Positions 141 to 63,330 of a DNA stretch of 64,000 nucleotides are shown piece after piece. A program made the position numbers and the translations under genes. The notes under the pieces were generated by a model that worked only from the letters and a program-made list of their open reading frames with translations, had not been told where the DNA came from and ran no database searches. Source of the stretch: Candidatus Staskawiczbacteria bacterium (GTDB taxonomy: Bacteria; Patescibacteriota; Minisyncoccia; Minisyncoccales; Staskawiczbacteraceae); NCBI GenBank assembly GCA_041661545.1, contig JBAZUH010000001.1:544148-608147 (forward strand), written 5' to 3'. Positions within the stretch are counted from its first letter, which is position 1. Each line of letters opens with the position of its first letter.

Positions 141-1070
141 TTAATTTATATAGTATTTACCGTTGTCGGAATTTATAAATCCTTTCAACTGCATTAACGA
201 TAAAGTGGTGCCAAGCTGGGCAACAGGGGTTGAAAAAAGTCGAGCCATTTCGTCAGCTTTCATAGACTCTCTTTTTAATTGTTCAATAATTTTATTCTCT
301 AAGGTGCCACGCTTACCCGCCGACTTGTCCGCCGAAGTTTTAACGAGGGTGGAAGCCTTTTGTGCACTAGGCAATATTTTAAAAAAATCTAAAATTTGTT
401 TGGCCTCAATTATTGGTTCAGCTCCCTCTCTTATCAATTCAATTGTTCCTTTTGAAACTTCGCTAGTAATAGGGCCCGGCACAGCAAAAATTTTTCTATT
501 AAATTTTTTAGCATAATTTGCAGTAATTAAAGAACCCGACTTTAAAGCAGCTTCTGTAACTAAAACTGCCTTACAAAGCCCGGCCACAATTCTATCTCTC
601 TGCACAAAAGAATAATTTGTTGGCTTAAACCCCGGCTCATATTCTGAAATTATTAGACCGTTATTATCTAAAATTTTATGATAAAGTTCTTTTTGCTGTG
701 GAGGAAAAATTATATCCACCCCACATGGCATAACAGCAATTGTTTTTCCACCGCATTTTACAGCAGCAGAATGAGCCGCTTCATCGCCTCCATACATAAA
801 TCCAGAAACAATTGTAATTCCAGATGCAGCAGCTTCTGTTACCAACTGCTCGGTTACTCTTCTGCCATAAGAAGTTAAATGACGCGAGCCTACAACCGCC
901 AAACAATTTTCTCCCGCCGCAGCGGGATCCCGCCTATCGGCGGGAAAAAATGCATTCCAATTTCCTTTATAATACAATTTTTTAGGACCCGAACTTGCAA
1001 CAAGGTTTTTTAACGCCTCTTTTAAAGCTTTAGGATATTTTGAATCTGTAATTTCAACAGCTTCTACCAT
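141..1070 (-). CDS. dprA: DNA processing protein DprA (Smf)
   Basis: 309 aa with DprA core motifs LAVVGSRHLTSYG, IVSGFMYGGDEAAH, FVQRDRIVAGL and LVTEAALKSGSLITA. Lies next to comM. Confidence 0.9.
   Translation of the reverse strand: MVEAVEITDSKYPKALKEALKNLVASSGPKKLYYKGNWNAFFPADRRDPAAAGENCLAVVGSRHLTSYGRRVTEQLVTEAAASGITIVSGFMYGGDEAAHSAAVKCGGKTIAVMPCGVDIIFPPQQKELYHKILDNNGLIISEYEPGFKPTNYSFVQRDRIVAGLCKAVLVTEAALKSGSLITANYAKKFNRKIFAVPGPITSEVSKGTIELIREGAEPIIEAKQILDFFKILPSAQKASTLVKTSADKSAGKRGTLENKIIEQLKRESMKADEMARLFSTPVAQLGTTLSLMQLKGFINSDNGKYYIN
315..355. repeat. GC-rich ACCCGCC-type element inside dprA, in frame
   Basis: ACCCGCCGACTTGTCCGCCGAAGTTTTAACGAGGGTGG stands out from the AT-rich coding context. 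It encodes the linker ..TSADKSAGKRGT.. and shares the ACCCGCC...GGGT termini with the other copies listed below. Confidence 0.5.
912..945. repeat. GGATCC-core double-hairpin element (copy 1), in frame in dprA
   Basis: TCCCGCCGCAGCGGGATCCCGCCTATCGGCGGGA folds as two adjacent hairpins (TCCCGC/GCGGGA and TCCCGCC/GGCGGGA). It encodes FPADRRDPAAAGE just before the conserved AVVGSR motif. Confidence 0.8.
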
Positions 1071-13810: not shown

Positions 13811-14566
13811 TTATATGCCTGTATTTTGATTTTCTTGTGACTCAGTAAAGTTTCCATTTTCAAATTCAACCTCCTCACCCACTTGCGAAGACACACCTTT
13901 TTTTGGCACCTGCAATTGTTTTTGAAGATGGTTAATTTGAGATGATAACAATTGTTTTGTGTTTCTTGCATCGGTTATTATTTTTTCAATTAAACCTTGT
14001 AAGAACTTTTCTCTTTCTACTAATTCATTATCTTTGGCCTTATAATCAATAAGCAATGATTCATATTTCTTAATCCAGTCTTTTTTCTCAGCCCGGTCTT
14101 CTTTTAATATTTCTAAAAACTCTCGGTCAACGGTTATTTGATCGGGCGCATAAGCGGTGGGCTCGGCGCTTCTGCGATTTGGCTTAGGTTCTTCTGACCG
14201 CTTAAGCGGTTCTTCTAACTGACTAGATATTTCACTAGACTGTTCCGGTACCACCGCATAAGCGGTAGGCTCGGCGCTTAAGCGGTTTGGTTCAGGTTCA
14301 TCTGACCGCTTAAGCGCTTCTTCAGACCGCTTAAGCGGTACCGCATAAGCGGTTTCTTTTGCTATAGCTTCTAACTCTTTAACCCAAAAATCTTCTTTTA
14401 AAAGAATAACATTCCCCACTCCTTTGTCATACCTTTCAGTTAAAACTCCCTCTAATTTTTGTGGGTCTACCAATCTATACTTTCTAATTCTTCTTCTAAT
14501 CCTAACATCTGGAACTTCATATTTTTGAATAAATTCTTGTATTGTTAAAAATTCGTTATTATCCAT
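13811..14566 (-). CDS. HTH-like (excisionase/MerR-type N-terminus) protein with an internal tandem repeat and a C-terminal coiled coil
   Basis: 251 aa. N-terminus FLTIQEFIQKYEVPDVRIRRRIRKY. Two repeats of about 36 aa (..LKRS[DE]EP[EK]PNR.SAEPTAYA..). The CDS contains 4 perfect and 3 degenerate copies of the palindrome found upstream. Confidence 0.5.
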   Translation of the reverse strand: MDNNEFLTIQEFIQKYEVPDVRIRRRIRKYRLVDPQKLEGVLTERYDKGVGNVILLKEDFWVKELEAIAKETAYAVPLKRSEEALKRSDEPEPNRLSAEPTAYAVVPEQSSEISSQLEEPLKRSEEPKPNRRSAEPTAYAPDQITVDREFLEILKEDRAEKKDWIKKYESLLIDYKAKDNELVEREKFLQGLIEKIITDARNTKQLLSSQINHLQKQLQVPKKGVSSQVGEEVEFENGNFTESQENQNTGI

Positions 14567-16093: not shown

Positions 16094-17518
16094 TCACGGA
16101 ATGTCCGTAGATTTGGCTATCGCTTGGGCGGGGTTTTGAGCCTTCCATGCGCCCGAATCAGTAGAGCTGTAGACATATCCGCCCATGACCGTCGCAGTCA
16201 TACTGCGAAAGTCTACGGATGCGGACACGTCAGACCAATTCTGCTTGTCGGCAACCGGCTCCCAATCCACCCCGAAATTGCCAGAGGTGTAAAGCGAGCC
16301 TCCAGACTCTGCAGCCAAGAATCGACGACCATCGCCCGAACACTTAATGGCCACCCATTTCCGAACATTGTCGGTTAACCGTGGTTGCCACGTCTGCATA
16401 AAGTCAGTGGAGATGTAGATATATCCACCATTTACAGTGGCGCCCCAAAACTGGGCGTTATAATTGGTTGTTAGGTCCGTCCAATCGCGGGACTCGCCAA
16501 CGGGCTTCCATGTCTGGCCCCCGTTGTAGGACGCATAAAGCCAACTATTGGAGGCTGCTACCCCCCGAAATTGACCACCAAAATCCATCTCGCCAGCCAC
16601 CCAATTCGGGCCAGCAAACCCGGTCGTCTCCCAGCTATCCCCCCAATCATACGTCTGCCAGATGTATCCACCTGGATCAACGGCCATCAGAAGTTGGCCA
16701 TCATCAGAAGTTGCTACGGACCTCCACCGGATTTTCAGGTCGCCCTCATAGGGCAAGTCGTATGCTTTCCAGGTCTGACCATAGTCAGCGGACCCATATA
16801 ACTCTCCATCAAGGGTCCCTATAATCTGGTTTTGGCCATAATAGGACACGGCGACGCAGGAAGGTTTATCTATATCTACGGTCCGCCAAGTGCTCCCGCC
16901 ATCGGCGGAGACATAAACTGGCGCGTTGCCAGCGATAAGCGTCCTATATTTTCCGTCACCAGACATGGAAGCACCGTTCCATGCAAGACTGGGACTGCCC
17001 ACGGCAGGTGAGGGGGGATTGGGTGTGTTACCACCATCGCCACCACCACCATTGCCACCGCCAGGACCTCTGCTCCCATCTCCTCCACCAATGGGGCCGA
17101 AAGAATAAAATGGAACAGATTCCTTGGTCTTATGCCTGATTATGGGGCTCCAATTAGCATAAGCCGTTGGTGTCGTCGCAGGATTAGATGTTGTTGTGCG
17201 CGAACCAAAGTTGGTTCGTGCAATGCTCGCCTGCGGGGCAACAACCTCTGCTCGAGGAATATTCGTGCCAGCTCTCTTTAAACTGACTTGGCCTTCGTTG
17301 TGTCCACTGGATTTCAAATTCCAGGGCTTGTATTTGTTCGCGGTCAAGCCTTGACCCGACCTAAACAATTTCAACGACGGCCTTTCGGGCTCGCTGAGCC
17401 ACACTACAAAAAAGATCGGCACTAGCAGTGCCAGTAGAGTAGCGCCCAGTTTCTTGAGCCCTATCTTCTGCAAAACCGCCGTCGCGGTAGAAATCTTCTC
17501 AAGGCTTTTTGTGTTCAT
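16094..17518 (-). CDS. Membrane-anchored Asp-box (BNR) repeat beta-propeller protein, on a GC-rich island
   Basis: Seven SxDxGxTW-like boxes (SADGGSTW, SADYGQTW, TYDWGDSW, SYNGGQTW, STDFMQTW, TSGNFGVDW, STDSGAW). Gly/Pro linker and TM anchor. ATG at 17518 is preferred over the GTG at 17581 because AAGGAG sits 10 nt upstream. Confidence 0.7.
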   Translation of the reverse strand: MNTKSLEKISTATAVLQKIGLKKLGATLLALLVPIFFVVWLSEPERPSLKLFRSGQGLTANKYKPWNLKSSGHNEGQVSLKRAGTNIPRAEVVAPQASIARTNFGSRTTTSNPATTPTAYANWSPIIRHKTKESVPFYSFGPIGGGDGSRGPGGGNGGGGDGGNTPNPPSPAVGSPSLAWNGASMSGDGKYRTLIAGNAPVYVSADGGSTWRTVDIDKPSCVAVSYYGQNQIIGTLDGELYGSADYGQTWKAYDLPYEGDLKIRWRSVATSDDGQLLMAVDPGGYIWQTYDWGDSWETTGFAGPNWVAGEMDFGGQFRGVAASNSWLYASYNGGQTWKPVGESRDWTDLTTNYNAQFWGATVNGGYIYISTDFMQTWQPRLTDNVRKWVAIKCSGDGRRFLAAESGGSLYTSGNFGVDWEPVADKQNWSDVSASVDFRSMTATVMGGYVYSSTDSGAWKAQNPAQAIAKSTDIP

Positions 17519-17604
17519 GGCTGACTTTCTCCTTTCCAAAAAGTTTTCAATGCTAGAAGTGGTTGACAAAATGTCTTCCACGTTGCTTCTAGCGTGCTAC
17601 TTCA

Positions 17605-17633: not shown

Positions 17634-17674
17634 GGGTTTTTCACTTGCTTCTATATATATGATATAATACACAA

Positions 17675-18535: not shown

Positions 18536-18539
18536 AATC

Positions 18540-20525
18540 ATGTTTCAACAATTCTCATTTCTAAAAAATAAATATTTATTTTTCACTCTTTTCTGTTTTA
18601 TTATATTACTAGGAGCATTAATGCCCGTACACGTCTTAGCCGAATCAAATGACAGTGCTGGCTGGGGTAATACAGGAGATAGATCAAAAATAATAAATCT
18701 ATTTACTTCTGCATCTCCTGATTCTTTCTCTCCCGAAGGTGGTTGGGATGCAACAACGTGGCCCAAATATTTAATTGGATATTTATTATTTTCAATCGTA
18801 TGGCTAGCCTTCAAAATAGCTGCTTTAGCACAGTTGTTATTATCTTATGTATTGGGTGTAATTGTAAGCTTATCAATAACCAAAGATCCTAATTGGCTTC
18901 CAATATGGGGCAGCCTTAGAGATTTAGGAAATATGGTTATTGTATTGGGATTCGTAGTAGTAGGCATTGCTACATCTCTAAGATTTAAAGACTATGAAGC
19001 TAAAAAGATCTTGTTGCCTTTGATACTAGTTGCTATTCTAATCAACTTCTCCGGATTAGTTTGTGGATTAATTATAGATGCGTCTAATTTAGTAACTACT
19101 GGATTAATAGAGGGAAGTGAAGCTTCCATGATGCCATATAACGTCTTACAACAAATGATTCTCGTTAGCTCGTGCGTGCATACCACAGGACACGATGCGG
19201 GGCCCGATGCATATGTTGAAGTATCAACGTCAGTAAACACCCCCTCGTGTATTTCAACCGAAAATTATGATAAAGATCTTAAAATATTTATAGCAATATG
19301 TTGTTTATGGATGATTTTGTACTTAGCCATAGGTCTTACATTTTTATATATGGCAGTTTTACTTTTGGCAAGATATGCCATTTTAATAATGTTATTTATA
19401 TTATCTCCTTTAGCTTTCACTTTCTGGGTTTTTCCAATTACTAAAAAATTGTGGCAAGAGTGGTGGAATCATTTTGTAAAATGGTGTTTTGTTGGAGTCT
19501 ATGCATCGTTTACTCTCTACATAGCTACTACCATTATAACAAAAGTGCCCATCGTGGGAGGCACTGCAGACAACCTGAATAGTGACTTATGGCAACTAAC
19601 TCTTGTATATTCTATTGCAATAGTATTTTTGATTGTTGGATTTAAAATGACCGTCAGCAAGGTTGGAGGAGCCGCTGTAACAGCTATTTTGGGACTAGCA
19701 ACTGGTGGCGCGGCTTTGGCCGGTAGAGCAACCCTTGGTGCAACCAAACTTGCTGGAAGAGGAATCGGAGCCGGAGCCAGAGCATTAGATAATAAAGCTA
19801 CTGGCGGAAAGGTTACTTCGGCGATAGGCAACATGGGTAGGAAGGTTGGTAGCAGTACCGGAAGATTTCTGGATGCTATGGCAGGAACTCCTGGTGCTAG
19901 AGCTGGAGGTGTAGCGAAAGAATTCTCAGCAGGCTCTGATAGAATTGGAGATATGGATTTAGCCAGCCAAGTTAAATTAGCTTCAGGCAAAGGAATGGGT
20001 GGCATGGCAAGAACAAAAGAAAGAGCTGAGGCAGTACAAGCCTTGGCAAAAAGCGGAAATCTTTGGAGAATTAGCGATGATATAAATGAACAATCAAGAG
20101 CCGTTAATTTTGCAGATAAATATATGCAAAGCAAAGGGATAGATGCCACTAAATTTAGAGGGGACGTTAGCAAGAATGCTCCTGTGCTAGAAGCATACAA
20201 TCGTCCTATTGTAGAAAAAATTCAACAACAGCATCCAAATTGGAGCCCTGCTCCCGACGCAAGCTTGGGTGGATTAACTCGAGCTCAACATGAAGCGGTT
20301 GTACGTGCAGTAGCGAGAATGCCAGAAGACGGTTTAAATGCCAGCACGGCAAAATCAATGCATCATTCTGCTATAACAGCAGCGGGAGCTAGAATGAACG
20401 ATAGAAAAAAACAAACATGGCAAAAAGCTTCTTATAATGATATGCGCCAAGAGGCGCTGGCTATGAATGCTGGGCCAGAACAAACCGCCTTGGCAGAAAG
20501 AGCAAGAGCAATGTTTGATTTATAA
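18540..20525 (+). CDS. Polytopic membrane protein, TrbL/VirB6-like by architecture
   Basis: 661 aa. Signal peptide (..VHVLAES), at least 6 TM helices, Gly/Ala-rich segment, hydrophilic C-terminal third. No motif-level proof. Confidence 0.5.
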   Translation: MFQQFSFLKNKYLFFTLFCFIILLGALMPVHVLAESNDSAGWGNTGDRSKIINLFTSASPDSFSPEGGWDATTWPKYLIGYLLFSIVWLAFKIAALAQLLLSYVLGVIVSLSITKDPNWLPIWGSLRDLGNMVIVLGFVVVGIATSLRFKDYEAKKILLPLILVAILINFSGLVCGLIIDASNLVTTGLIEGSEASMMPYNVLQQMILVSSCVHTTGHDAGPDAYVEVSTSVNTPSCISTENYDKDLKIFIAICCLWMILYLAIGLTFLYMAVLLLARYAILIMLFILSPLAFTFWVFPITKKLWQEWWNHFVKWCFVGVYASFTLYIATTIITKVPIVGGTADNLNSDLWQLTLVYSIAIVFLIVGFKMTVSKVGGAAVTAILGLATGGAALAGRATLGATKLAGRGIGAGARALDNKATGGKVTSAIGNMGRKVGSSTGRFLDAMAGTPGARAGGVAKEFSAGSDRIGDMDLASQVKLASGKGMGGMARTKERAEAVQALAKSGNLWRISDDINEQSRAVNFADKYMQSKGIDATKFRGDVSKNAPVLEAYNRPIVEKIQQQHPNWSPAPDASLGGLTRAQHEAVVRAVARMPEDGLNASTAKSMHHSAITAAGARMNDRKKQTWQKASYNDMRQEALAMNAGPEQTALAERARAMFDL

Positions 20526-20543
20526 ATATTAATTAATAATATA

Positions 20544-21167
20544 ATGGTAAATAATCAACAAAAAATTATTATTTTTGAGAATCAAGGCTCTAAAAGCATA
20601 TGGGCGATTATTTCAGAAGTTTTAAAAGATAATGGGATGGAAGAAACAGCCATTGATTTTTTCAAAAAAGTGGACGAGAAGAAAATACCATTTTCAAGCA
20701 TAATATATAAATTATCTAGAAAACTTGCTCAAGAAGAAATTACAGAAGAAAATTTTGTTACATCAATCAAAGACCAATTAAAAATTGAGCAACAAGTTGC
20801 TGAAAAAATATTAAAAGATGTAAAAGAAAAAATTTTACCGCTGGCTAGAACGCTTGAAAAAGATGAACTAGTAAAAGATGAAACAATTAGCACTGTGCCA
20901 CAGAGCCTAAAAACAATAAATAAAAATTTCTCACCGGCAACAGAAAAAAATAACATAAATATTTCTGGCTCAGAAATTTTGGCTAATGAGCCAATAGATT
21001 CTTTGCCAAAAAATGAAACTCAAAATATTGCAAACACAATTACTCCTGCGACCATTGAAACACCAACAAAAAGAATTAGAAAACCTTTACCTAAAAAACC
21101 TTTTGTACCAGAAACTCAACCAACACAACCTAGCAAGCCAGATTCTTATAGAGAACCTATAGAGTAA
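20544..21167 (+). CDS. Hypothetical protein with Pro/Thr-rich C-terminus
   Basis: 207 aa, follows the VirB6-like gene on the same strand. Confidence 0.45.
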   Translation: MVNNQQKIIIFENQGSKSIWAIISEVLKDNGMEETAIDFFKKVDEKKIPFSSIIYKLSRKLAQEEITEENFVTSIKDQLKIEQQVAEKILKDVKEKILPLARTLEKDELVKDETISTVPQSLKTINKNFSPATEKNNINISGSEILANEPIDSLPKNETQNIANTITPATIETPTKRIRKPLPKKPFVPETQPTQPSKPDSYREPIE

Positions 21168-21180
21168 AAGCAGTAAACAA

Positions 21181-21209
21181 CCCCACACCAATTTCGGGTG
21201 GGGTTTTTT
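21181..21209 (+). terminator. Terminator after 20544-21167
   Basis: CCCCACACC-AATTTC-GGGTGGGG followed by TTTTTT. Confidence 0.7.
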
Positions 21210-21213
21210 ATTT

Positions 21214-21270
21214 AAAAAAAGGGGCGAGCTTCGTGGTGTCGTGTAAAAAACGACACCATCGAAGCCCGCC
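21214..21270 (-). terminator. Long-stem terminator of the GC-rich SPFH-like gene
   Basis: GGCGAGCTTCGTGGTGTCGT / ACGACACCATCGAAGCCCGCC form an imperfect stem of about 20 bp. The T-run is on the minus strand. Confidence 0.6.
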
Positions 21271-21289
21271 TTTGGGTTATGTTCTGAGG

Positions 21290-22468
21290 TTACAGGCCGT
21301 CCAAATCGTCCGGCCCCAACTCTATCGCTGGCGGAGGCGAACCTCCACCAGGCTGATTGCGTCTGTCACCACGACGATTCCCCCCGTCTCCCCGAGCCAA
21401 TGGCTGAAGAGCATTGCCGAGTTCGCGTGCCAACGTAACACCGGCTGCGAAGTTGGCCTCAATCGGTTGGCCACCGCTGGTGACATCAAACTTGGTGAAT
21501 CCGCGACCAGCGAGCGCCTGCGATCGTAGTTGCTCAAGCGCCTGTTTATGTTGAGCATATTCACCACTTCTTTTCAGCTTGGCAACGAGTTTCTTCATCG
21601 CCACCGAATCCGACGAGTCAACTCCCGCGAGCCTTGCTTCTTCGGTAATCCATTCTTGCATGGCAAGCTGGACCGGGCCAAAAACCCGCGCCTTTTCGCC
21701 TTCAGCCAACAATTGCTGTTTGCTTTTGGCCTCCAAGGCTTCCTGATATCCGGGCTGGTATCCCACATCTTCAACGATGACAGAATTTTCCAGAATCCGA
21801 AGACCCCAGTCATTTTCCATCGTCGTGAAAACAGGAAGCGATCCCTGATTAACCAGGTCTTGCCAAAGCTGGGCGCCATTACCCCTGGCGGCTTGAGCAC
21901 GCTCTTGTGAACCGCCACGAACCCATGCTCGCAACGTTGAATCCATCCGCCGTATAACCTGAGCGCTAACGTCGCGGGGTGCCACAAACAGCCATTTGTA
22001 CAGGTTGACGATTCTCATGACGGAAACGAATTTCACGTCAAGTGGAACGCTCTCAGGAGCTGCCGTTTCTGCTTTAGAGATCATGGGTTCAGGAGCGACG
22101 TTTCCGACGCGGACATGAATGCCCGCACCAAACATGTCGGCACTTCCATTCTGCTGAGCGTATCGAACGGCCGAGACAAACGGCCATAGATAAATCACCC
22201 AGCCCCCAAAACGGCACATAAACCATGACCCCTGGCCATAGCCGTCGGGGTAATCTCCCTCGACAACGTTGCCGTTTTCATCGAAGCCATGCCCCCTGAA
22301 ATTCATCCCTAGGTAGCAGAAGCTACCGAAGCTGAGAAAGGCAATGGCTGTGCCTTCTCGGATGATTGCCACCCTAATAATACGCAACGCCCAGAGGAGG
22401 AAGATTGTGAAAATCATCCACCAAAGGTGATCGCTCAGCCAATCGAACACTGAATATATCGCTTGCAT
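21290..22468 (-). CDS. Membrane-anchored SPFH/band-7-like protein, on a GC-rich island
   Basis: Start taken at MQAIYSVFDW (ATG at 22468). N-terminal TM. The segment IIREGTAIAF...VKFVSVMRIVNLYKWLFVAP.DV resembles an SPFH fold pattern. Coiled-coil and Gly/Arg-rich tail. Confidence 0.45.
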   Translation of the reverse strand: MQAIYSVFDWLSDHLWWMIFTIFLLWALRIIRVAIIREGTAIAFLSFGSFCYLGMNFRGHGFDENGNVVEGDYPDGYGQGSWFMCRFGGWVIYLWPFVSAVRYAQQNGSADMFGAGIHVRVGNVAPEPMISKAETAAPESVPLDVKFVSVMRIVNLYKWLFVAPRDVSAQVIRRMDSTLRAWVRGGSQERAQAARGNGAQLWQDLVNQGSLPVFTTMENDWGLRILENSVIVEDVGYQPGYQEALEAKSKQQLLAEGEKARVFGPVQLAMQEWITEEARLAGVDSSDSVAMKKLVAKLKRSGEYAQHKQALEQLRSQALAGRGFTKFDVTSGGQPIEANFAAGVTLARELGNALQPLARGDGGNRRGDRRNQPGGGSPPPAIELGPDDLDGL

Positions 22469-22609
22469 TTTGGTTGTTGGTTGTTGGTTGTGGTTGGTTG
22501 GTTTTGAACAGTCACTTAACGGTTGGCGCGAGAACACCTCGCTCCACACAGGAATTACCCTGCGTTCATAATGAAAACCGTGTTTGACAATGTTCTTTCA
22601 GATACATTT

Positions 22610-41778: not shown

Positions 41779-42453
41779 ATGAGTAAAAAGCAATTACTGT
41801 TCGCAATAATATTTACTATTTTAGGGCTTTTAGCCTTTCAGATTTCTGTTAGTCAAATTATAGGGTCTGCTCAAAAATTCACTTTATTTGAATTGTTGGG
41901 GCCCATTGGTGGCATGTTTTTAGGTCCAATTTTAGGAGCGGCATCTGTTTTCTTTGTTAGAGCTTTTAATATATTATTTTTTAATCAACCGGTAGATTTT
42001 TTAACAGTTATAAGATTTTTGCCAATGATGGCCGCCGCTGTTTATTTTGGATTAAAAACGAAAAAAACAGCAATTATATTTCCAATATGTATTGCGTTGT
42101 TTTTATTAAATCCAATAGGCAGGCAGGCATGGATGTATTCAGCAATTTGGTTAATTCCTTTTGTAGCTACATTTTTTAAGAAAAAATTAATTTTAAATAG
42201 CTTGGGGGCTACTTTTACAGCGCATGCTATTGGTTCTGTTATTTTTCTTTATTCCTTTGGATTAACTCCAGCAATTTGGATTTCTCTAATTCCCGTTGTA
42301 TTTATAGAAAGAGGATTTTTTACAATAGGAATTTGGTTTAGTTGTTTGGTATTTAATACTGCACTAGATAAACTTACAAATTTTAAATTTGCTTCGGCTT
42401 TAAAACCACTTGTTAAGCCAGAGCTACTTTTTAATGCTAGTAAAAGCAATTAA
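41779..42453 (+). CDS. Polytopic membrane protein, unknown function
   Basis: 224 aa, about 6 TM helices. Confidence 0.5.
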   Translation: MSKKQLLFAIIFTILGLLAFQISVSQIIGSAQKFTLFELLGPIGGMFLGPILGAASVFFVRAFNILFFNQPVDFLTVIRFLPMMAAAVYFGLKTKKTAIIFPICIALFLLNPIGRQAWMYSAIWLIPFVATFFKKKLILNSLGATFTAHAIGSVIFLYSFGLTPAIWISLIPVVFIERGFFTIGIWFSCLVFNTALDKLTNFKFASALKPLVKPELLFNASKSN

Positions 42454-43207
42454 AACACGTCCATTAGTTCCTCCACAAGATAATTTGCTATCTGTTATAA
42501 AGCAAAGCTTTTTAAAATATAAACTAAAAGAAGGGTCTATAATAGTAATTACCTCTAAGGTGGTATCTATCTGGCGCGGAGATTGCATTAAGATAAGCCA
42601 GATAAAAGATAAAGATAGCCTGATAAAGAAAGAAGCTAACTTATATATTGCTAGAAAAAAGGTTTCAAAAGACTGTTCTGTAATGCTAACAATTAAAAAC
42701 AATATTTTAATTCCAACGTCGGGCATAGATGAAAGCAATGCCAATGGGCATTATATTTTGTGGCCCAAAAATCCATTTGGCGATGCTAAAGAAATTTATA
42801 ATTTTATAAAAAAAGAATTTAAATTAAAAAATTTTGGTGTAATAATTTCTGATAGTCATACTACTCCATTAAGAACAGGAATTATAGGAATTGGAATTGC
42901 TTATTATGGGTTTTATCCTTTAAGAGATTATAGAAACAAAAAAGATATTTTTGGCAGAAAATTAAAAATGTCTCAAACAAATATTGTTGATTCTTTGGCT
43001 GTTAGTGCGGTTTACGAAATGGGGGAGGGTGCCGAGCAAACTCCAATTGCCGTTATTGAAAGCCCCGGCAATATAAAATTTGAAACCAAGAGTTACAAAA
43101 AAGACACATTATTAATTAGTATTGATGAAGATATCTATTCGCCATTTTTAAAAAGTGTAAAATGGCAAACCCTTCGACGTGACTCAGGGCGTGCAGACAA
43201 AAAATAG
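42434..43207 (+). CDS. CofE-like gamma-glutamyl ligase family protein
   Basis: Start taken at MLVKAIKT. Motifs GIDESNA, ISDSHTTPLRTG and GEGAEQTPIAVI. GC-rich 3' tail (QTLRRDSGRADKK). Confidence 0.72.
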   Translation: MLVKAIKTRPLVPPQDNLLSVIKQSFLKYKLKEGSIIVITSKVVSIWRGDCIKISQIKDKDSLIKKEANLYIARKKVSKDCSVMLTIKNNILIPTSGIDESNANGHYILWPKNPFGDAKEIYNFIKKEFKLKNFGVIISDSHTTPLRTGIIGIGIAYYGFYPLRDYRNKKDIFGRKLKMSQTNIVDSLAVSAVYEMGEGAEQTPIAVIESPGNIKFETKSYKKDTLLISIDEDIYSPFLKSVKWQTLRRDSGRADKK

Positions 43208-48442: not shown

Positions 48443-48500
48443 CCCGGTTAAATAATTTTGCTTCACAAAATTAAAATCTAAGAGATTTTATTTAACCGGG
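48443..48500. repeat. AT-rich three-way-junction element B1
   Basis: CCCGGTTAAATA ... TATTTAACCGGG (perfect 12-bp closing stem) enclosing hairpins ATTTTG/CAAAAT and AAATCT/AGATTT. Confidence 0.65.
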
Positions 48501-48534
48501 TGAATTAATATACCCTATAAAATTTTGATAAATA

Positions 48535-49698: not shown

Positions 49699-50613
49699 AT
49701 GGAAAAAAATCAGAGGTTAATTATTATAGATTCTAATGCATTGTTGCACAGGTCGTTTCATGCTTTGCCACCGCTAAAAACAAAATCAGGGCAGGAGACT
49801 GGGGCTGTTTATGGATATTTGCTTACACTTTTTAAGGCACTAACTGATTTATGTCCCTCCGGGACATCTCCCGAAGGGAGAAAACCTCTCTATATTGTTG
49901 CTTGTTTTGATACAAAAGGGGCAACATTTCGCCACGAAATGTATAAAGATTATAAAGTGCAAAGGCCAGCAACTCCTAGTGGAATTGTTTCACAAATTCC
50001 TGTGGCAAAAGAAGTTGTTGAAGCCTTGGGCATTCCTATTTTTGCTAAAGAGGGGGTAGAGGCCGATGATTTAATTGCTACTATTTGCACAAAAAATTCA
50101 GAATTAGAAATTTTTATTGTTTCTGGAGATATGGATAATACTCAACTAGTTAATGAAAAGATAAAAGTTTATACTTTGGGCAAAGGGATAAAAGATACAA
50201 TTATTTATGATATTAACAGGGTGCGAGAAAGGTTTGGAGTAGAGCCTTCGCAAATGGTAGATTTTAAAGCTTTAATGGGTGATGCTTCTGATAACATCCC
50301 AGGAGTTGAAGGTATTGGAAAAAAAACAGCAGCAGAAATAATACAAAAATATGGCAGTATAAAAAATCTTTATGAGGAGTTGGCCACAGACACAGCTGTT
50401 TTAAAACCAAAAGTAAAAGAAGCTTTAAAGCAAAACAAAGAATCTGCTTTAATGTCTCTTGAATTAGCACGAATGAAAGCAGATGTTGATATAGATTTTA
50501 AAATTGAAGATTGTAAATTTGGAAATTTTGACAAAAATAAAGTTGCGGAAGTTTTTAATAGTTTAGAATTTTATAGTCTCGTTGACCGCTTGTCACAGTT
50601 GGGCTATAATTAA
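49699..50613 (+). CDS. Stand-alone 5'-3' exonuclease (Pol I N-terminal/FEN-type)
   Basis: 304 aa with IIDSNALLHRSFHALP, GVEADDLIAT and H3TH motif GDASDNIPGVEGIGKKTA. Confidence 0.87.
   Translation: MEKNQRLIIIDSNALLHRSFHALPPLKTKSGQETGAVYGYLLTLFKALTDLCPSGTSPEGRKPLYIVACFDTKGATFRHEMYKDYKVQRPATPSGIVSQIPVAKEVVEALGIPIFAKEGVEADDLIATICTKNSELEIFIVSGDMDNTQLVNEKIKVYTLGKGIKDTIIYDINRVRERFGVEPSQMVDFKALMGDASDNIPGVEGIGKKTAAEIIQKYGSIKNLYEELATDTAVLKPKVKEALKQNKESALMSLELARMKADVDIDFKIEDCKFGNFDKNKVAEVFNSLEFYSLVDRLSQLGYN
49853..49881. repeat. GC-rich double hairpin insert in the exonuclease gene, in frame
   Basis: GTCCC-TCC-GGGAC A TCTCCC-GAA-GGGAGA, encoding LCPSGTSPEGRK between conserved blocks. Confidence 0.7.
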
Positions 50614-51255: not shown

Positions 51256-52167
51256 ATGCCAGAGCTACCCGAAGTAGAAACAACAGTGAAAGGTTTAAAT
51301 GCAAAGGTCCTTAATAGGACCTTTGTTTCTGTTTGGTCTGATTGGAAAAAGTTAGTTAAAAAACCGAAAGATTTTTTGCAATTTGAAAAACAAATAAAAA
51401 ATAAAAAAATTATAAAAATATGGCGTAGAGCCAAAAATATAATATTTGATTTGTCTGGAGGCCTCTCGCTTTTAGTGCATCAAAAAATGACGGGTCATAT
51501 GTTGGTGGGCAAGTGGTCCCGCCACAGCGGGATCCCGCCCGAGGCGGGAAGCATATGGAAACCAATAAAAGAAGGTCCGCTTAATGATCCATATAATAGG
51601 TTTTTGCATTTGATATTTTTTCTTGATAATAAAGAAATGATAGCTCTTTCAGATGCTAGAAAATTTGCAAAAGTTGAGTTATGGGAAAAAAAAGAATTAG
51701 AAAGCGAACTTAAAAAAATAGGGCCTGAGCCCTTGGAAAAATCTTTTACTTTTGAAAAATTTAAAGAAAATTTGTTATGGCAAAACCCGCCTTCGCCAAG
51801 GCTACGGCAGGGCACAGTAAAGCAGATTTTAATGGTGCCAGAAGTGATAGCTGGCATTGGAAATATTTATGCATCAGAAATTTTATGGTGGGCAAAAGTT
51901 CATCCCCAAAAAAGTGTTGCAAAGCTAAATGAAAAAGAGTTAAGGTTAATTTATAAAGCTATAAAAAGCGTTTTACAAAAAGCAGTTAAATTGGGTGGAG
52001 AAAGTTTCTCTGATTATAGAAAGCCAGATGGAACCAAAGGAGATTTTGATACAGAAAGAAGAGTTTATAAAAGAGAGGGGCAAAAGTGTGGCAGGTGTAG
52101 CGTAAAAATTAAAAGAATTAAATTTGGCGGTAGAAGCACCTTTTTCTGCCCCAAATGCCAATCATGA
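51256..52167 (+). CDS. mutM: Formamidopyrimidine-DNA glycosylase
   Basis: 303 aa with MPELPEVET, GIGNIYASE and zinc finger CGRC..CPKC. Confidence 0.92.
   Translation: MPELPEVETTVKGLNAKVLNRTFVSVWSDWKKLVKKPKDFLQFEKQIKNKKIIKIWRRAKNIIFDLSGGLSLLVHQKMTGHMLVGKWSRHSGIPPEAGSIWKPIKEGPLNDPYNRFLHLIFFLDNKEMIALSDARKFAKVELWEKKELESELKKIGPEPLEKSFTFEKFKENLLWQNPPSPRLRQGTVKQILMVPEVIAGIGNIYASEILWWAKVHPQKSVAKLNEKELRLIYKAIKSVLQKAVKLGGESFSDYRKPDGTKGDFDTERRVYKREGQKCGRCSVKIKRIKFGGRSTFFCPKCQS
51517..51549. repeat. GGATCC-core double-hairpin element (copy 2), in frame in mutM
   Basis: TCCCGCCACAGCGGGATCCCGCCCGAGGCGGGA, encoding SRHSGIPPEAG. Confidence 0.85.
51785..51819. repeat. ACCCGCCT...GGCAGGGCACAGTA element, in frame in mutM
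   Basis: ACCCGCCTTCGCCAAGGCTACGGCAGGGCACAGTA, encoding NPPSPRLRQGTV. Confidence 0.7.
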
Positions 52168-53460: not shown

Positions 53461-55476
53461 TTATTTGTTATTCAATTTTTTTATTAAATCTCTTATCTCA
53501 GCTGCTCTTTCAAAATCTAAATTTTTTGCCGCTATTTTCATTTCTTTTTCTAAAAGTTTTTGGTCATGTATTGCAAAAAATTCTTCATTAATGCTTTCTT
53601 TATCTGAGTTTGCAGAAGAATCTTTAGAAAATTTCCAATCTCTTATGTTAGAAACAATTGTTGCAGGAGTTATATTATTTTTTTTATTATAATCTTCTTG
53701 TATTTTTCTTCTTCTGTTTATTTCTTTTATAGCATTTTTCATAGACAGAGTTTCTTTATCAGCATACAAAATAACTCGTCCATTTAAATGTCTAGCAGCC
53801 CTTCCCATAGTTTGTATTAATGTTGTTTCGTTTCTCAAAAATCCTTCTTTATCAGCATCCAAAATAGCCACTAAAGAAACTTCTGGTAAATCTATTCCTT
53901 CTCTTAGTAAATTAATTCCTACAAGTACATCATATTTGCCCTCTCTGAGATTTTTTAATATTTCGGGCCTCTCCATAGTTTTGATTTCAGAATGTAGGTA
54001 TTGAGTTTTTATCCCTTTTTCGGTTAAATAATCAGAGATTTCTTCAGCCAGTTTTTTTGTTAAGGTAACAACAATTGTTCGATGTTTTTTATCTACTTGT
54101 TTTTTTATTTCTTCTATTAGGTCTTTAATTTGGTTTTCGGTTTTTTTTATTTCTATAGATGGCTCTAAAAGTCCGGTAGGTCTTATTATTTGCTCAATAA
54201 TATGGCTATTAGCCTTTTGCTTTTCAAAAATAGCGGGGGTGGCCGATACATAAATTGTTTGTTTTTGTCTTTCTTCAAATTCTTTAAAATTTAAAGGTCT
54301 ATTATCAATGGCCGAGGGCAATCTAAACCCAAAATCAATTAGGGTTTGTTTTCTAATTCTGTCTTGTACTGACATGGCCCTAATTTGAGAAATAGAAATA
54401 TGTGACTCATCTATAAAAATTAATGACCCGCCAGGGGCCTGCTCTGAGCCTGCCTGCAGTGAGCTTGTCGAATCTGTCGAAGGGTTAAAATAGTTAAAGT
54501 AATCAACTAAAGAGAAAGGGGCTTGCCCGGGTTTTCTAAACTCCATATGGCTAGAATAATTTTCTATGCCCTGGCATCGGCCAGTTTCAGCCAACATTTC
54601 TAAATCGTAGTTTGTTCTTTGTTCTAATCTTTCTGCTTCTAAGTTTTTGCCTAATTTTTTAAGTTTTATTAGTTGGTTTTTTAATTCTGTTTTTATATTT
54701 TCAATTGCAATTTTAAATTTATCTTGAGGGGCTACCCAAAAAGTAGCGGGGAATAATGTAATTTTATCTCCCGATGATTGGTATTTTTTATCTAAACTTG
54801 GGGTGGACTCAGAAATTTTTTCTATTTTGTTTCCATTAAATTCAATGCGAAATATTTTTTCTCCTGTAACTATATATATTTCAACCATATCTCCTCTAAC
54901 GCGAAAAGTGCCCGGCTTAAAATCAATATCATTTCTTTGATATTGCAAGCCTGTAAGTAAAATCAAAAAATCTTTTCTTGTAATTTTTTCATTTACTTTA
55001 ATTTCTAAAGAAGTGCGTCCATAGTTTTCTGGAGAACCAATATTATAAATACAAGAGACCGAAGCAACTACTATAACATCTTTTCTTGCTATAACATCTT
55101 GAACAGCTGCATGGCGCAACCTATCTATTTCTTCATTAATTTTTGCGTCTTTTTCTATATATGTATCTGAATGCGGTATATATGCTTCTGGTTGATAATA
55201 GTCATAATAAGAAACAAAATAATGAACTGCATTGTTAGGAAAAAATTCTTTAAACTCTTGATATAGTTGAGCAGCCAAAGTTTTATTTGGAGAAATTATT
55301 AGGGTTGGTTTTTGTATTTTTTCAATAACATTTGCTAAAGTAAAAGTTTTTCCCGATCCCGTTACGCCCAAAAGCACCTGGTCTTTTATGCCAGATTCTA
55401 AATTATTGGTCAGTTGTTTTATAGCATTTGGCTGATCTCCTGTGGGTTTAAATTTTGATTTTAGTTTAAATTTCAT
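53461..55476 (-). CDS. uvrB: Excinuclease ABC subunit B
   Basis: 671 aa with GVTGSGKTF, FIDESH, helicase motifs and a C-terminal UVR domain (LDFERAAEIRD). Confidence 0.96.
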   Translation of the reverse strand: MKFKLKSKFKPTGDQPNAIKQLTNNLESGIKDQVLLGVTGSGKTFTLANVIEKIQKPTLIISPNKTLAAQLYQEFKEFFPNNAVHYFVSYYDYYQPEAYIPHSDTYIEKDAKINEEIDRLRHAAVQDVIARKDVIVVASVSCIYNIGSPENYGRTSLEIKVNEKITRKDFLILLTGLQYQRNDIDFKPGTFRVRGDMVEIYIVTGEKIFRIEFNGNKIEKISESTPSLDKKYQSSGDKITLFPATFWVAPQDKFKIAIENIKTELKNQLIKLKKLGKNLEAERLEQRTNYDLEMLAETGRCQGIENYSSHMEFRKPGQAPFSLVDYFNYFNPSTDSTSSLQAGSEQAPGGSLIFIDESHISISQIRAMSVQDRIRKQTLIDFGFRLPSAIDNRPLNFKEFEERQKQTIYVSATPAIFEKQKANSHIIEQIIRPTGLLEPSIEIKKTENQIKDLIEEIKKQVDKKHRTIVVTLTKKLAEEISDYLTEKGIKTQYLHSEIKTMERPEILKNLREGKYDVLVGINLLREGIDLPEVSLVAILDADKEGFLRNETTLIQTMGRAARHLNGRVILYADKETLSMKNAIKEINRRRKIQEDYNKKNNITPATIVSNIRDWKFSKDSSANSDKESINEEFFAIHDQKLLEKEMKIAAKNLDFERAAEIRDLIKKLNNK
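54426..54485. repeat. GC-rich insert of about 60 nt in uvrB, in frame
   Basis: ACCCGCCAGGGGCCTGCTCTGAGCCTGCCTGCAGTGAGCTTGTCGAATCTGTCGAAGGGT. It encodes NPSTDSTSSLQAGSEQAPGG immediately before the DESH box, where E. coli UvrB (from memory) has only ..DYLPADGLLVVDESH. Confidence 0.7.
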
Positions 55477-55498: not shown

Positions 55499-56092
55499 AT
55501 GATAGCATTTTTAGAGGGAAAAATTATATTAAAAAAGGAGAAGTTTGTGATTGTTGAAGTGGCCGGCATTGGCTACAAGGTTTTTTTAAACCGCCAAGCC
55601 CTAATAACTTTACCCGCCTCCGCTCCAGAAGAGCTTCGGCAGGGCAAGCCAGAAATTAATTCTGTAAAACTCTTTATATACCATGAGACAAAAGAAGACA
55701 AGTCTGATTTGTATGGATTTCTTACTTATGAGGAATTTGAATTTTTTGAGATATTAATGGACATTAGAGGAGTGGGGCCAAGGTCAGCATTAGATATTTC
55801 AGCTTTAGGTTCTTTAGACAAAATAAAAGATAGAATTTTAAAACAAGACGAAAAAATATTTGAGGGCATTCCAGGAATTGGTTCAAAAAAGGCAATGACT
55901 ATAATTTTAGAGCTTACAGGTAAAATAAACATACTCGGTCAGAAAAAAAGTTCTGGCGACGAAGCAGAAAGCGCTTTGGTTCAGCTTGGGTTTTCAAAGC
56001 AACAAGCCAAAGATGCTTTGAGTCGTGTGCCCGCCTCTATAAAAGATTCAGAAGAGCGCATAAAATTAGCTTTAAAAAATTTAGGCAAATAA
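55499..56092 (+). CDS. ruvA: Holliday junction DNA helicase subunit RuvA
   Basis: 197 aa with VEVAGIGYKV and HhH motifs IRGVGPRSAL and IPGIGSKKA. Confidence 0.9.
   Translation: MIAFLEGKIILKKEKFVIVEVAGIGYKVFLNRQALITLPASAPEELRQGKPEINSVKLFIYHETKEDKSDLYGFLTYEEFEFFEILMDIRGVGPRSALDISALGSLDKIKDRILKQDEKIFEGIPGIGSKKAMTIILELTGKINILGQKKSSGDEAESALVQLGFSKQQAKDALSRVPASIKDSEERIKLALKNLGK
55612..55650. repeat. ACCCGCCT...GGCAGGGCA element, in frame in ruvA
   Basis: ACCCGCCTCCGCTCCAGAAGAGCTTCGGCAGGGCAAGCC, encoding PASAPEELRQGKP in the OB-domain loop. Confidence 0.7.
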
Positions 56093-56525: not shown

Positions 56526-57812
56526 ATGAGCGTTAAAGAAATAATTCACCCGATTAAATACCGCGAAGCGTTGATTTCGTTTTTAACGAAATCATTTAAC
56601 CGGGTAAAAAAATTTATACCGAAATTTTTGATAAGAATTTATCATTATAAATTAGCTTTGTTGGGAGCTGTGGTTTTTGGTTTTCCTGGCCTTAATAAAA
56701 ATATAAAAATAATAGGGGTAACAGGCACCAGTGGGAAATCAACTACAGTAGATTTTGTAACCAGAATTTTTGACGAGGCAAATGAAAAGGTGGCTTCGGT
56801 GTCTTCTATTAGATTTAAAGTTGCAAATAAAGAATGGGAGAATAAATATAAAATGACAATGCCTGGCCGTTTTGTAATTCAAAAACTATTGAGCCAGGCA
56901 AAAAAAGCAGGTTGTAAATATGTTGTTTTAGAGGTTACATCAGAGGGAATAAGACAATTTCGTCATAAATTTATAAATTTTGATTGTGTGGTTTTTACTA
57001 ACTTAACACCCGAACATATTGAAAGTCATGGAGGGTTTGAAAATTATAAAAAAGAAAAATTAAAATTATTTAAAGAAAATAAAAATATACATATTATAAA
57101 TATAGATGACAAAAATTCAAAAGAATTTTTGGATATTCCAGCTAAACAAAAAATTGAATTTTCTATCAAAGATGCAGAAAATATAAAGTTTGATTCCAAC
57201 TTAATTAGTGGGTTTAATATTTATAATGCTTTATCTGCTATTTCTGTTGCAAGAGTTTATGGGATTAGTTTAGATGTTTGTAAAAAAGCTTTAGAAAAAA
57301 TAAAAGTTATTCCAGGAAGAATGGAAGTGGTGTTAGAATTTCCTATTAAAGTTATTGTTGATTATGCGCATACCCCCGACCAACTTGAAGCAGTTTATAA
57401 AACATTTTCCGCCAAAGGCGGATCCGCCTTTGGCGGAAGCCTCGTTTGTGTTTTAGGTTCTTGTGGTGGGGGAAGAGACAAATGGAAAAGGCCTGTTTTA
57501 GGAGAAATAGCAAAAAAATATTGTAAAGAAATTATAATTACCAACGAAGACCCATATGACGAAGATCCACTTTCTATTATGAAAGAAATAGAAAGTGCCC
57601 TGTTGTATGACGGGGCTAATTCTAAGCACCATATGATTTTAGACAGGAAAGAAGCCATAGAAAAGGCAATAAAGCTTGCTAAACCTGGAGATGTGGTTAT
57701 AATTACAGGAAAGGGGTCTGAACCTTGGATGTGTCTAGAAAATGGACGCAAAATACCATGGAACGATAAGCAAATAGCACAAGATGCTGTTAAAAAATTT
57801 TTTACCCCGTAA
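56526..57812 (+). CDS. Mur ligase family protein (MurE-like)
   Basis: 428 aa with IGVTGTSGKSTT, DYAHTPDQLE, GGGRDKWKRP and GKGSE. Confidence 0.8.
   Translation: MSVKEIIHPIKYREALISFLTKSFNRVKKFIPKFLIRIYHYKLALLGAVVFGFPGLNKNIKIIGVTGTSGKSTTVDFVTRIFDEANEKVASVSSIRFKVANKEWENKYKMTMPGRFVIQKLLSQAKKAGCKYVVLEVTSEGIRQFRHKFINFDCVVFTNLTPEHIESHGGFENYKKEKLKLFKENKNIHIINIDDKNSKEFLDIPAKQKIEFSIKDAENIKFDSNLISGFNIYNALSAISVARVYGISLDVCKKALEKIKVIPGRMEVVLEFPIKVIVDYAHTPDQLEAVYKTFSAKGGSAFGGSLVCVLGSCGGGRDKWKRPVLGEIAKKYCKEIIITNEDPYDEDPLSIMKEIESALLYDGANSKHHMILDRKEAIEKAIKLAKPGDVVIITGKGSEPWMCLENGRKIPWNDKQIAQDAVKKFFTP
56548..56605. repeat. AT-rich three-way-junction element B2 (within the annotated 5' end of the Mur ligase gene)
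   Basis: ACCCGATTAAAT ... ATTTAACCGGGT closing stem (1 mismatch) enclosing CGC-GAA-GCG and GATTTCG-TTTTTAA-CGAAATC. Confidence 0.55.
57417..57448. repeat. Perfect 32-nt palindrome with GGATCC core (copy 4, variant), in frame in the Mur ligase gene
   Basis: TTCCGCCAAAGGCGGATCCGCCTTTGGCGGAA, encoding SAKGGSAFGG between DYAHTPD and the GGGRDK block. Confidence 0.85.
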
Positions 57813-62098: not shown

Positions 62099-63330
62099 AG
62101 TTTATAGCAGATTTTCATATACACTCAAAATATTCTAGGGCAGTGTCTCCTTTAATGAATTTAGAAAATTTAGCTAAGTGGGCAGAAATAAAAGGAGTAA
62201 AAGTTTTAGGCACAGGTGATTTTACTCACCCTAAATGGCTTGGCGAAATAAAAAAACAACTAAGCCCCGCAGAGCGGGGTCTTTTTTCCCGCCACAGCGG
62301 GATCCCGCCAAAGACGGGAAAGCTTGGCAGTAAAACTCGTTTTATTCTTACAACTGAGATAAGTTGTATATATAAAAAACTAGGAAAAGTTAGAAAAATT
62401 CATATTATTGTTTTTGCTCCATCAATAGCCACGGTAGAAAAAATAAACTTAGCATTATCTAAAATTGGCAATTTACATTCAGACGGTAGGCCAATTTTGG
62501 GGCTAGATGCAAAAGAGTTAGTAAAGATTGTTTTAAATATAGATAAAAATTGTTTAATAGTGCCAGCTCATGCCTGGACACCATGGTTTTCTATTTTTGG
62601 CTCAAAGTCAGGATTTAATTCTTTAGAGGAGTGTTTTGAAGAATATACAAAATATATTTATGCAATTGAAACTGGGTTGTGTTCAAATCCTGCTATGAAT
62701 TGGAGAATATCTAAACTAGATAAAATTACTTTAATTTCTAACAGTGATGCACACTCTCTTGCTAAAATTGGACGGGAAGCAAATGTTTTTGATACGGAGC
62801 TGAGTTATAAGGGGATTGTTGAGGCCATTAAGTTTCCAGAAAAAAAGTTTTTATATACTATAGAATTTTTTCCTGAAGAAGGTAAATATCATTATGATGG
62901 TCATCGTAATTGTGGTATAAGTTTAGCTCCTCAACAATCTAAAAAGAATAATAATATATGTCCTAAATGCAACAAACCCTTGATAATAGGGGTTTTAAAT
63001 AGGGTAGAAGAATTGGCTGATAGGCCAGAAGGATTTTTGCCTAAAAAAGGAATTCCATTTAAAAGTTTAATTCCTTTAAATGAAATAATAGCTGAATCAA
63101 TTGGCGTTTCAACAGCATCAAAAAAAGTTATAAAATATTATGATAATTTAATAAAAAATTTAGGACCAGAGTTAGAAATATTATTAGAATCAACAGAAAA
63201 AGATATAAAAGAAAAATCTTTACCAGAAATTGCCAAAGGGGTTATAAAAATGCGCAAGGGGCGCGTTTTTATTGAGCCAGGATATGACGGTGTTTATGGA
63301 AAAATTAATATTTTATTTAATAATGGTTGA
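62095..63330 (+). CDS. PHP-domain endonuclease Q-like protein
   Basis: 411 aa with FIADFHIHSKYSRA, PAHAWTPWF, SNSDAHS and Zn-ribbon CPKCNKP. Confidence 0.72.
   Translation: MKFIADFHIHSKYSRAVSPLMNLENLAKWAEIKGVKVLGTGDFTHPKWLGEIKKQLSPAERGLFSRHSGIPPKTGKLGSKTRFILTTEISCIYKKLGKVRKIHIIVFAPSIATVEKINLALSKIGNLHSDGRPILGLDAKELVKIVLNIDKNCLIVPAHAWTPWFSIFGSKSGFNSLEECFEEYTKYIYAIETGLCSNPAMNWRISKLDKITLISNSDAHSLAKIGREANVFDTELSYKGIVEAIKFPEKKFLYTIEFFPEEGKYHYDGHRNCGISLAPQQSKKNNNICPKCNKPLIIGVLNRVEELADRPEGFLPKKGIPFKSLIPLNEIIAESIGVSTASKKVIKYYDNLIKNLGPELEILLESTEKDIKEKSLPEIAKGVIKMRKGRVFIEPGYDGVYGKINILFNNG
62287..62319. repeat. GGATCC-core double-hairpin element (copy 3), in frame in the EndoQ-like gene
   Basis: TCCCGCCACAGCGGGATCCCGCCAAAGACGGGA, encoding SRHSGIPPKTG. 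The first 24 nt are identical to copy 2. Confidence 0.85.

Follow-up and report, generated by a model that had tools for sequence, protein, structure and literature searches.

A GC-rich insert before helicase motif II of a Staskawiczbacteria UvrB, probably an in-frame copy of a small dispersed repeat

The 64-kb stretch of DNA from Candidatus Staskawiczbacteria bacterium analysed here (hereafter the window) carries a uvrB gene on its reverse strand, and within this gene, shortly before the codons of the DESH box of helicase motif II, lies a 60-nt tract that is far richer in guanine and cytosine (GC) than its surroundings. The locus raises the question of where such a tract came from and what it means for the encoded UvrB. 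Our preferred answer, to which we give a probability of roughly 0.7, is that the tract is a translated and probably neutral passenger: a copy of a tiny dispersed repeat, lodged in a loop of the protein that tolerates extra residues.

The host gene is otherwise intact. The window protein was identical to P0001, encoded on a 737,971-bp contig of a metagenome-assembled genome and annotated as 'excinuclease ABC subunit UvrB [Candidatus Staskawiczbacteria bacterium]', and the Pfam domains UvrB_inter, UvrB and UVR were assigned to it in a precomputed listing. Its residues 2-668 matched residues 4-654 of the solved UvrB structure 2FDC over the full length (HMMER, E=8e-229), and this similarity together with the DESH of motif II places it in the UvrB class. 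DESH was unchanged across 52 homologues, and every invariant UvrB position was kept in the window protein.

The preliminary description of this DNA had reported a 20-residue, GC-rich, low-complexity insertion built of short direct repeats. Its account of the composition was borne out: the tract (plus-strand letters ACCCGCCAGGGGCCTGCTCTGAGCCTGCCTGCAGTGAGCTTGTCGAATCTGTCGAAGGGT) reached 63% GC compared with 31% for the gene and 33.6% for the window, and the next-highest 60-nt window inside uvrB reached 48%. Over the whole 64 kb, 60-nt windows at 63% GC or above made up 0.37%, most of them in a separate block at 16-22.6 kb. That block (16000-22600; 55-62% GC, with long reverse-strand open reading frames (ORFs) at 16094..17581 and 21290..22549) stands inside an otherwise 30-35% GC window and may have been acquired horizontally. 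All of the direct repeats were found, with TGTCGAA present twice (54466, 54475), GAGC twice (54446, 54461) and GCCTGC even three times (54437, 54448, 54452). The protein around the insert reads ...SLVDYFNYFNPSTDSTSSLQAGSEQAPGGSLIFIDESH....

The tract is a genuine insertion relative to canonical UvrB. Alignment with the solved B. caldotenax UvrB (2FDC, 1D9X; HMMER) left a single clean gap of 20 residues between F329 and P330, DESH being residues 338-341 of that protein. The reported length therefore agrees exactly with the gap, whereas the GC-rich insert itself accounts for only 16 residues (48 nt). Sixteen residues is the surplus over the nearest relatives (NYFNPDGSLIFIDESH), and the remaining NYFN is a 4-residue, AT-rich extension common to all Staskawiczbacteria and no part of the GC-rich insert. 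Ortholog alignments confirmed that the tract belongs to a set of GC-rich inserts within window genes; its rank as the longest of these holds roughly, a 57-nt in-frame element at 56548-56604 being longer than 48 nt but AT-richer.

The insertion site was compared in the 120 closest UvrBs, which are 75-85% identical and all Staskawiczbacteria-like. The site was empty in 85 of the 120 (...DYFNYFNP[DEGNK]GSLIFIDESH), and the insert-free form NP[DEGNK]G-SLIFIDESH is taken as the ancestral state. About 30 carried variable extra residues at exactly the insertion point of the window protein, numbering 5-16 among close relatives; the usual peptide was ST[GS]SGQAQGG, with a shorter form STDAQGG and a longer form STPFDSAQGGGSGQVPG, and a few UvrBs had different inserts two residues further upstream. 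Carriers were scattered over a neighbour-joining UvrB tree computed with the insert masked, and at least seven sister pairs differed in presence or absence. The window is filled, for example, compared with its empty sister P0006/L084, whose site reads AAC CCC GAC GGT TCT. This patchy presence supports the view that the insert is evolutionarily young or variable and no ancient UvrB feature. In a wider survey of 80 species-representative genomes, most Parcubacteria had a canonical 4-residue loop (DYFPxDfL..DESH), and several distant Parcubacteria lineages had unrelated GC-rich hairpin inserts in the same loop. The preliminary description had named a comparable insertion in other UvrBs as the observation that would make the feature ancient. 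Such inserts do occur in other Parcubacteria, but their sequences differ and their distribution is patchy, which points to the loop before the DESH strand as an insertion hot spot and not to an ancient feature. The same comparison bears on the possibility of an assembly or sequencing artefact or a chimeric read. The unusual base composition, and nothing more, speaks for it; homologous inserts stand at the same codon in many independent assemblies (NCBI, JGI, ENA, Logan) and the reading frame is intact, so that its probability is negligible.

The core of the tract recurs in unrelated places. Ortholog alignments of the window genes against 80 loci yielded 211 minority insert segments, with a mean GC of 0.50 compared with 0.36 for the host genes. 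At about 24 nt, the basic unit consists of (A)ACCC, a box TTCGRC, 3-4 variable bases, a box GCTCA and GGGCARG(C); the Parcubacteria consensus is AACCC-TTCG[AG]C-N3-4-(G)CTCA-GGGCA[AG]G, with AT-rich flanks that are unrelated between copies. In related genomes, UvrB-type units were found in a NIF3-family gene (AACCCTTCGACAGGTTCAGGGCAG), in a Mur ligase (CCCTTCGACTCCGCTCAGGGCAAG, read as PFDSAQGK), in the HolA and Fpg genes, and at two more positions of UvrB, around residues 401-426 and in the C-terminal tail; the fill in the Mur ligase of L029 was exactly 24 nt compared with empty orthologues. Copies thus stand at non-orthologous positions. The window tract contains the TTCG[AG]C, 3-4 variable bases, (G)CTCA motif, and the commonest 13-mer of the unit, TTCGACAAGCTCA, is present exactly at 54460-54472 on the reverse strand, with a chance expectation of 0.02 per window. 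Within 1.45 Mb of Parcubacteria DNA, 34 copies were supported by a flanking stem of 3 bp or more, of which 31 sit in long intact ORFs, and the density in Parcubacteria loci is about one copy per 40-85 kb. The intragenic copies use all three frames and both orientations, and all of them are in frame and stop-free; the recurrent peptides NPSTGSGQA, PFDFAQGR and TLRQAQGK are one unit in different reading frames. Dispersed repeats also settle, then, within essential genes of tiny-genome candidate-phylum bacteria.

The unit was not confined to Parcubacteria. Exact-pattern scans detected it in at least 120 metagenome contigs and at least 120 viral contigs of 30-70% GC, the same few spacer variants (AAG, AGG, TCCG, TTCG, TGCG) recurring throughout the matches listed, and BLAST detected it, unannotated, on Moraxella, Sphingobium and Comamonas plasmids. 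In hosts rich in GC, a longer hairpin resembling a repetitive extragenic palindrome (REP), CCGTTCRCCC...GGGCGAACGG, contains the unit as its loop and inner stem, and inverted pairs and tandem arrays of the unit also occur there. Rfam gave no match around the tract at E<=1 and none at gathering score in six repeat-rich viral loci, and Pfam gave no match for the repeat-encoded peptide. Literature searches returned nothing relevant on the unit's peptides (FDKLR, RPELVEG and others) or DNA strings, and no link between the candidate phyla radiation or Patescibacteria and REP, miniature inverted-repeat transposable element (MITE) or palindromic in-frame insertions. The 24-nt repeat is very widespread and seems to be undescribed. 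A one-off low-complexity expansion does not fit a core that copies a dispersed repeat also present in other, unrelated genes and genomes and on plasmids and viral contigs.

Within the window tract the unit is present twice, one 24-nt copy lying between the boxes of the other (Table 1); the coding strand runs AACCCTTCGACA, GATTCGACAAGCTCACTGCAGGCA and GGCTCAGAGCAGGCC, then CCTGGCGGG. The outer stem is CCC...GAG with one mismatch, followed by the tail CAGGCC, and the inner copy (AGA...CTG) has no stem. The GC-rich end of the tract may repeat part of CAGGGC(A)GG. Nested layouts outnumbered tandem-like ones in this family, with 19 cases compared with 5 among 453 fetched units. L085 also has a resident copy that is interrupted at the same internal point, there by a full 24-nt copy that belongs to another subfamily and is read in another frame. 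The unrelated, AT-rich metagenome contig L283 carries a near-identical composite, differing by 4 transitions over 38 nt, in an intergenic position immediately downstream of a ribonucleotide reductase stop codon; the composite pattern had no match in viral contigs. Given the L283 copy, the window composite may have come in as a single piece.

These layouts bear on the alternative that the tract grew locally by replication slippage in a low-complexity region, with no dispersed element involved. The direct repeats and the variable length among relatives would suit slippage, and the A-A'-B'-B arrangement could also be obtained if stretches of 9 nt and 15 nt had each been duplicated in tandem and in frame. 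However, the unit, including the exact 13-mer, is present in unrelated genes and genomes with unrelated flanks, and a near-identical composite exists elsewhere. Slippage could account for some of the length variation but not for the origin of the sequence, and as a full explanation it is largely refuted and very improbable. The direct repeats are the halves of two copies, in a copy-within-copy layout that recurs in L085 and L283, and local stuttering alone does not explain them.

Nucleotide conservation of the insert was compared with that of its gene in 8 carriers. Four-fold synonymous sites of uvrB were 46% identical (saturated), whereas the 21-nt core of the insert was 85% identical and its third codon positions 84%. 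With a core so much more conserved than the synonymous sites, the tract does not appear to be an old neutral relic; recent independent gains from a conserved source, copy conversion or nucleotide-level constraint would be required. Constraint is what would be expected if the hairpin or motif were kept for a function at the DNA or RNA level (protein binding, mRNA stability or pausing, a recombination or uptake signal), with coding regions accommodating it. Consistent with such a function, conservation across phyla extends to the boxes TTCGRC and GCTCA but not to the flanking stem, a 3-bp stem has changed in a compensatory manner at one orthologous site of another gene (CAC/GTG vs TGC/GCA), and the GC-rich-host version folds significantly better than shuffled sequence (z=-3.4). 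The low density of copies, the sister lineages that differ in presence or absence, the lack of intact stems and excess stability in the window copies and the lack of an Rfam family all argue the other way, and the conservation would follow just as well from recent spread or from gene conversion. A DNA- or RNA-level function is unlikely on this balance. The window tract, folded as DNA and as RNA, had no excess structure (z=0.02); since the short units fold with no excess, the hairpin reading of the Parcubacteria copies draws on the 3-bp stem only.

The consequence for the protein was assessed with an AlphaFold2 model (mean predicted local distance difference test score, pLDDT, 67.5), which was used for secondary structure and disorder only. 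DSSP assigned a helix to residues 323-330, coil to 331-351 and a strand to 352-356, with pLDDT <50 at 335-348. The reported adjacency to a catalytic motif therefore holds in the sequence, but in the model the five-residue LIFID strand intervenes before E357-S358-H359 and the insert is low-pLDDT coil. In RecA-like domains the Walker B residues lie at the C-terminal end of their strand; by analogy, the insert would stand about five residues from Walker B, at the opposite sheet edge from the nucleotide. The encoded Ser/Thr/Gly/Gln/Ala/Pro peptide would form a disordered surface loop without a catalytic role.

An adaptive change of UvrB at the protein level (ATPase tuning, a contact with UvrA or UvrC, a mutator phenotype) has also been considered. 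Independent inserts of differing sequence recur at this loop in several Parcubacteria lineages, DNA repair accounts for many of the carrier genes in the window (DprA, 5'-3' exonuclease, Fpg, HolA, UvrB, RuvA), and speculation about a mutator effect exists for REP-decorated repair genes (PMC3733652). On the other side, the length, sequence and presence of the insert vary among close relatives, the region is predicted to be disordered, and the unit is read in other frames elsewhere, hence the peptide is not the conserved thing; the window neighbourhood is a repair-gene cluster, so an excess of repair genes is expected. An adaptive loop is quite improbable. For UvrB biology the case is ordinary: uvrB remains intact, and the tract, most likely a passenger that the protein tolerates, should not be taken as a catalytic novelty.

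The passenger reading can be put together as follows. The UvrB tract would be an in-frame copy of the 24-nt repeat, one copy inside another, placed between helix 323-330 and the motif II strand. The repeat would spread as selfish DNA or be re-copied repeatedly, and selection would leave only insertions of multiple-of-three length in permissive surface loops, which would in turn create apparent hot spots. The window copy would now be decaying, as suggested by its outer stem CCC/GAG, its stemless inner copy and its lack of excess folding energy. Several observations weigh against this reading. Translation of the insert is deduced from conservation of the frame. The neighbour-joining tree is star-like, and the counts of gain and loss are soft. 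The minimal unit and the window composite are no more stably folded than shuffled sequence (z about 0 to +0.3), and carriers disagree by 15-24 nt over the insert boundaries. The window and the flanks of its relatives, where no Y1-transposase scan was run, yielded neither a mobilising gene nor a target-site duplication nor defined termini. Of the terminal inverted repeats and target-site duplication that characterise a MITE, the unit has an inverted end of only 3-4 bp (ACCC/GGGT-like), and comparisons of filled and empty sites gave no consistent duplication. To these may be added the route through two tandem duplications mentioned above, and the nucleotide conservation with the compensatory stem change could reflect selection for a host function rather than selfish spread.

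A wider proposal, which we regard as doubtful but possible, is that the unit is an undescribed cross-bacterial mobile element, far below transposon size, that nests in the loops of its own copies and is mainly intragenic in candidate-phyla-radiation genomes with almost no intergenic space. If true, a widely conserved mobilising activity would be implied, possibly a nickase of the HUH type that works on the loop; alternatively, hairpin DNA resistant to nucleases might be taken up and captured. Many GC-rich 'low-complexity' loops of candidate-phyla-radiation proteins appear to be small hairpin repeats common to distant bacteria, plasmids and viral contigs. Repeat copies inflate apparent protein novelty and cause alignment and annotation artefacts; they also flag permissive loops of essential enzymes, and their presence or absence between sister lineages could act as a fine-scale marker in uncultivated groups. 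The features of the window that concern the unit and its UvrB host are collected in Table 1.

Table 1. Positions in the window of the uvrB gene, its GC-rich tract and the copies of the 24-nt unit
Feature	Positions	Strand	Basis
uvrB gene, 671 amino acids, otherwise intact	53461..55476	(-)	ORF list, annotated identical protein, solved-structure match
GC-rich tract, 60 nt, residues about 331-351	54426..54485	(-)	GC content compared with gene
Outer copy, 5' half: AAC CCT TCG ACA (N331-T334), AACCC stem side and box TTCGAC	54475..54486	(-)	Codon alignment, 11 insert-bearing relatives
Inner 24 nt: GAT TCG ACA AGC TCA CTG CAG GCA (D335-A342), second copy in the loop of the first, holding TTCGACAAGCTCA	54451..54474	(-)	
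Outer copy, 3' half: GGC TCA GAG CAG GCC (G343-A347), box GCTCA, degenerate stem (GAG for GGG), CAGGC tail	54436..54450	(-)	
GC-rich tail: CCT GGC GGG (P348-G350)	54427..54435	(-)	Relatives: APGG or AQGG
Peptide stretch at the UvrB insert, STDSTSSLQAGSEQAPGG			Predicted translation
LIFID codons (L352-D356), beta-strand leading into helicase motif II	54409..54423	(-)	DSSP on AlphaFold2 model
DESH box (D356-H359), Walker B / helicase motif II	54400..54411	(-)	Aligns to D338-H341 of 2FDC
Second window copy of the unit, ACCC-TTCGACGTGACTCA-GGGC, read in frame close to the C-terminal end of the F420-ligase-like ORF 42410..43207	43169..43190	(+)	Pfam (host ORF)

Other small repeats were observed in the window and its relatives. 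Double hairpins with a central GGATCC, such as CCCGCCACAGCGGGATCCCGCCCGAGGCGG, are present at 913-943 (DprA ORF 141..1070, reverse strand), 51518-51547 (Fpg), 57409-57436 (Mur ligase) and about 62288-62321. Three of them lie in frame within genes, and the fourth comes after a terminator-like hairpin; the near-identity of the copies suggests that they form a second dispersed family. Another in-frame element has the form ACCCGCC-3 nt-stem-loop-stem-3 nt-GGCAGGGCA, with a loop of about TTCGCCAAGGCT[TA]C, and lies at 55612-55646 (RuvA) and 51785-51814 (Fpg); its ACCC...GGGCARG ends are the same as those of the UvrB unit, and the RuvA copy is common to several related species (L001, L004 and L017 at the RuvA site). 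Y-shaped elements of about 60 nt, ACCCnGTTAAAT-hairpin-hairpin-ATTTAACnGGG, were found at 48443-48501 (reverse strand, intergenic) and at the 5' end of the Mur ligase ORF (the 57-nt in-frame element mentioned above), and in L009, L018 and L034; in L018 and L009 one is in frame within UvrB. Their outer stem is conserved, while the inner hairpins vary in sequence between copies yet keep pairing.

The palindrome CTGCCTGCCGGCAGGCAGG (peptide LPAGRQG) at 10967-10982 in the PNPase ORF recurs in L002, L017, L030, L053 and L059, in different genes and Parcubacteria genera. The Mur ligase loop directly upstream of the strand-plus-P-loop (KIIGVTGTSGKST), at about 56680-56700, holds four different GC-rich hairpin inserts in different species (L002, L004, L029, L084), and this pre-P-loop site is a second hot spot, located where a nucleotide-binding strand begins. 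The 5'-3' exonuclease ORF (49699..50613) has an in-frame double hairpin at 49854-49881, TCCCTCCGGGACATCTCCCGAAGGGAGA (peptide CPSGTSPEGR), which most orthologues lack. Many copies of the palindrome (A)CCGCTTAAGCGG(T) or CCGCATAAGCGG are clustered at 14136-14352 and 14588-14655, within and upstream of the reverse-strand ORF 13811..14566, and the cluster looks like a binding-site array or a repeat-rich protein region. On a related Staskawiczbacteria contig (L083, 1527-1829), a bAvd-family gene (PF22296, diversity-generating retroelement accessory variability determinant) lies near uvrB.

The unit was compared with known repeat systems. A tRNA T-arm, the FtsK-orienting polar sequences (KOPS), Chi, an uptake sequence and integron attC were dropped as counterparts because none matched consistently. 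On the viral contig L138, the reverse strand at about 9180-9400 holds an array with a 70-nt period, made of inverted pairs of the unit (GTGAGCTTGTCGAACCA / CCCTTCGACTAGCTCAGGGCGAACGG) with identical spacers; a clustered regularly interspaced short palindromic repeat (CRISPR) array was rejected there, as identical 'spacers' indicate a tandem REP array resembling a bacterial interspersed mosaic element (BIME).

Yeast mitochondrial GC clusters and 'byp' elements are short, GC-rich hairpins in AT-rich coding regions; byp breaks the frame and is skipped by the ribosome. The likeness lies in a GC-rich short hairpin element that invades the coding DNA of an AT-rich genome. A translational bypass element or an intron was ruled out for the unit, because all 31 intragenic copies are in frame and stop-free, and translation by read-through is the simpler reading. 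The small dispersed repeats (SDR) of Nostoc/Anabaena, attributed to work by Elhai and colleagues in 2008, are said to be 21-27 nt long and to have no transposase of their own, with some forming hairpins and some nested. By this description they resemble the unit in size and nesting, but they are cyanobacterial families with different sequences.

Rickettsia palindromic elements (RPEs), of which Ogata and colleagues reportedly gave an account in 2000, are said to be selfish palindromic DNA in protein-coding genes, RPE-1 being about 100-150 bp long and restricted to Rickettsia. Like RPEs, the unit is inserted in frame into essential genes of unrelated function in a small, AT-rich genome and leaves the frame open (31 of 34 copies lie in long intact ORFs), and RPEs are translated and tolerated at the protein surface, as we propose for the 24-nt unit. 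The unit differs in its length, about 24 nt or 48 nt for the composite, and in its occurrence in Parcubacteria, Proteobacteria plasmids and viral contigs; no sequence similarity between the unit and RPEs was noticed.

REPs tagged with GTAG or CGTC were surveyed by Di Nocera et al. 2013 (PMC3733652), who found some of them to be intragenic, many in replication and repair genes that include excinuclease ABC genes and the uvrB of Rickettsia conorii, and argued that intragenic REPs probably sit in loops or linkers. The TTCGRC-GCTCA unit has no GTAG or CGTC tag or complement at its flanks; its conserved part is a 13-14-nt two-box loop and not the stem, which in Parcubacteria is only 3 bp; and it occurs across phyla, with most copies intragenic in candidate-phyla-radiation hosts. 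Like intragenic REPs, it is a short (20-40 nt) dispersed stem-loop with some copies in ORFs whose frame stays open, and we regard intragenic REPs (PMC3733652), together with the Rickettsia palindromic elements, as its closest precedent.

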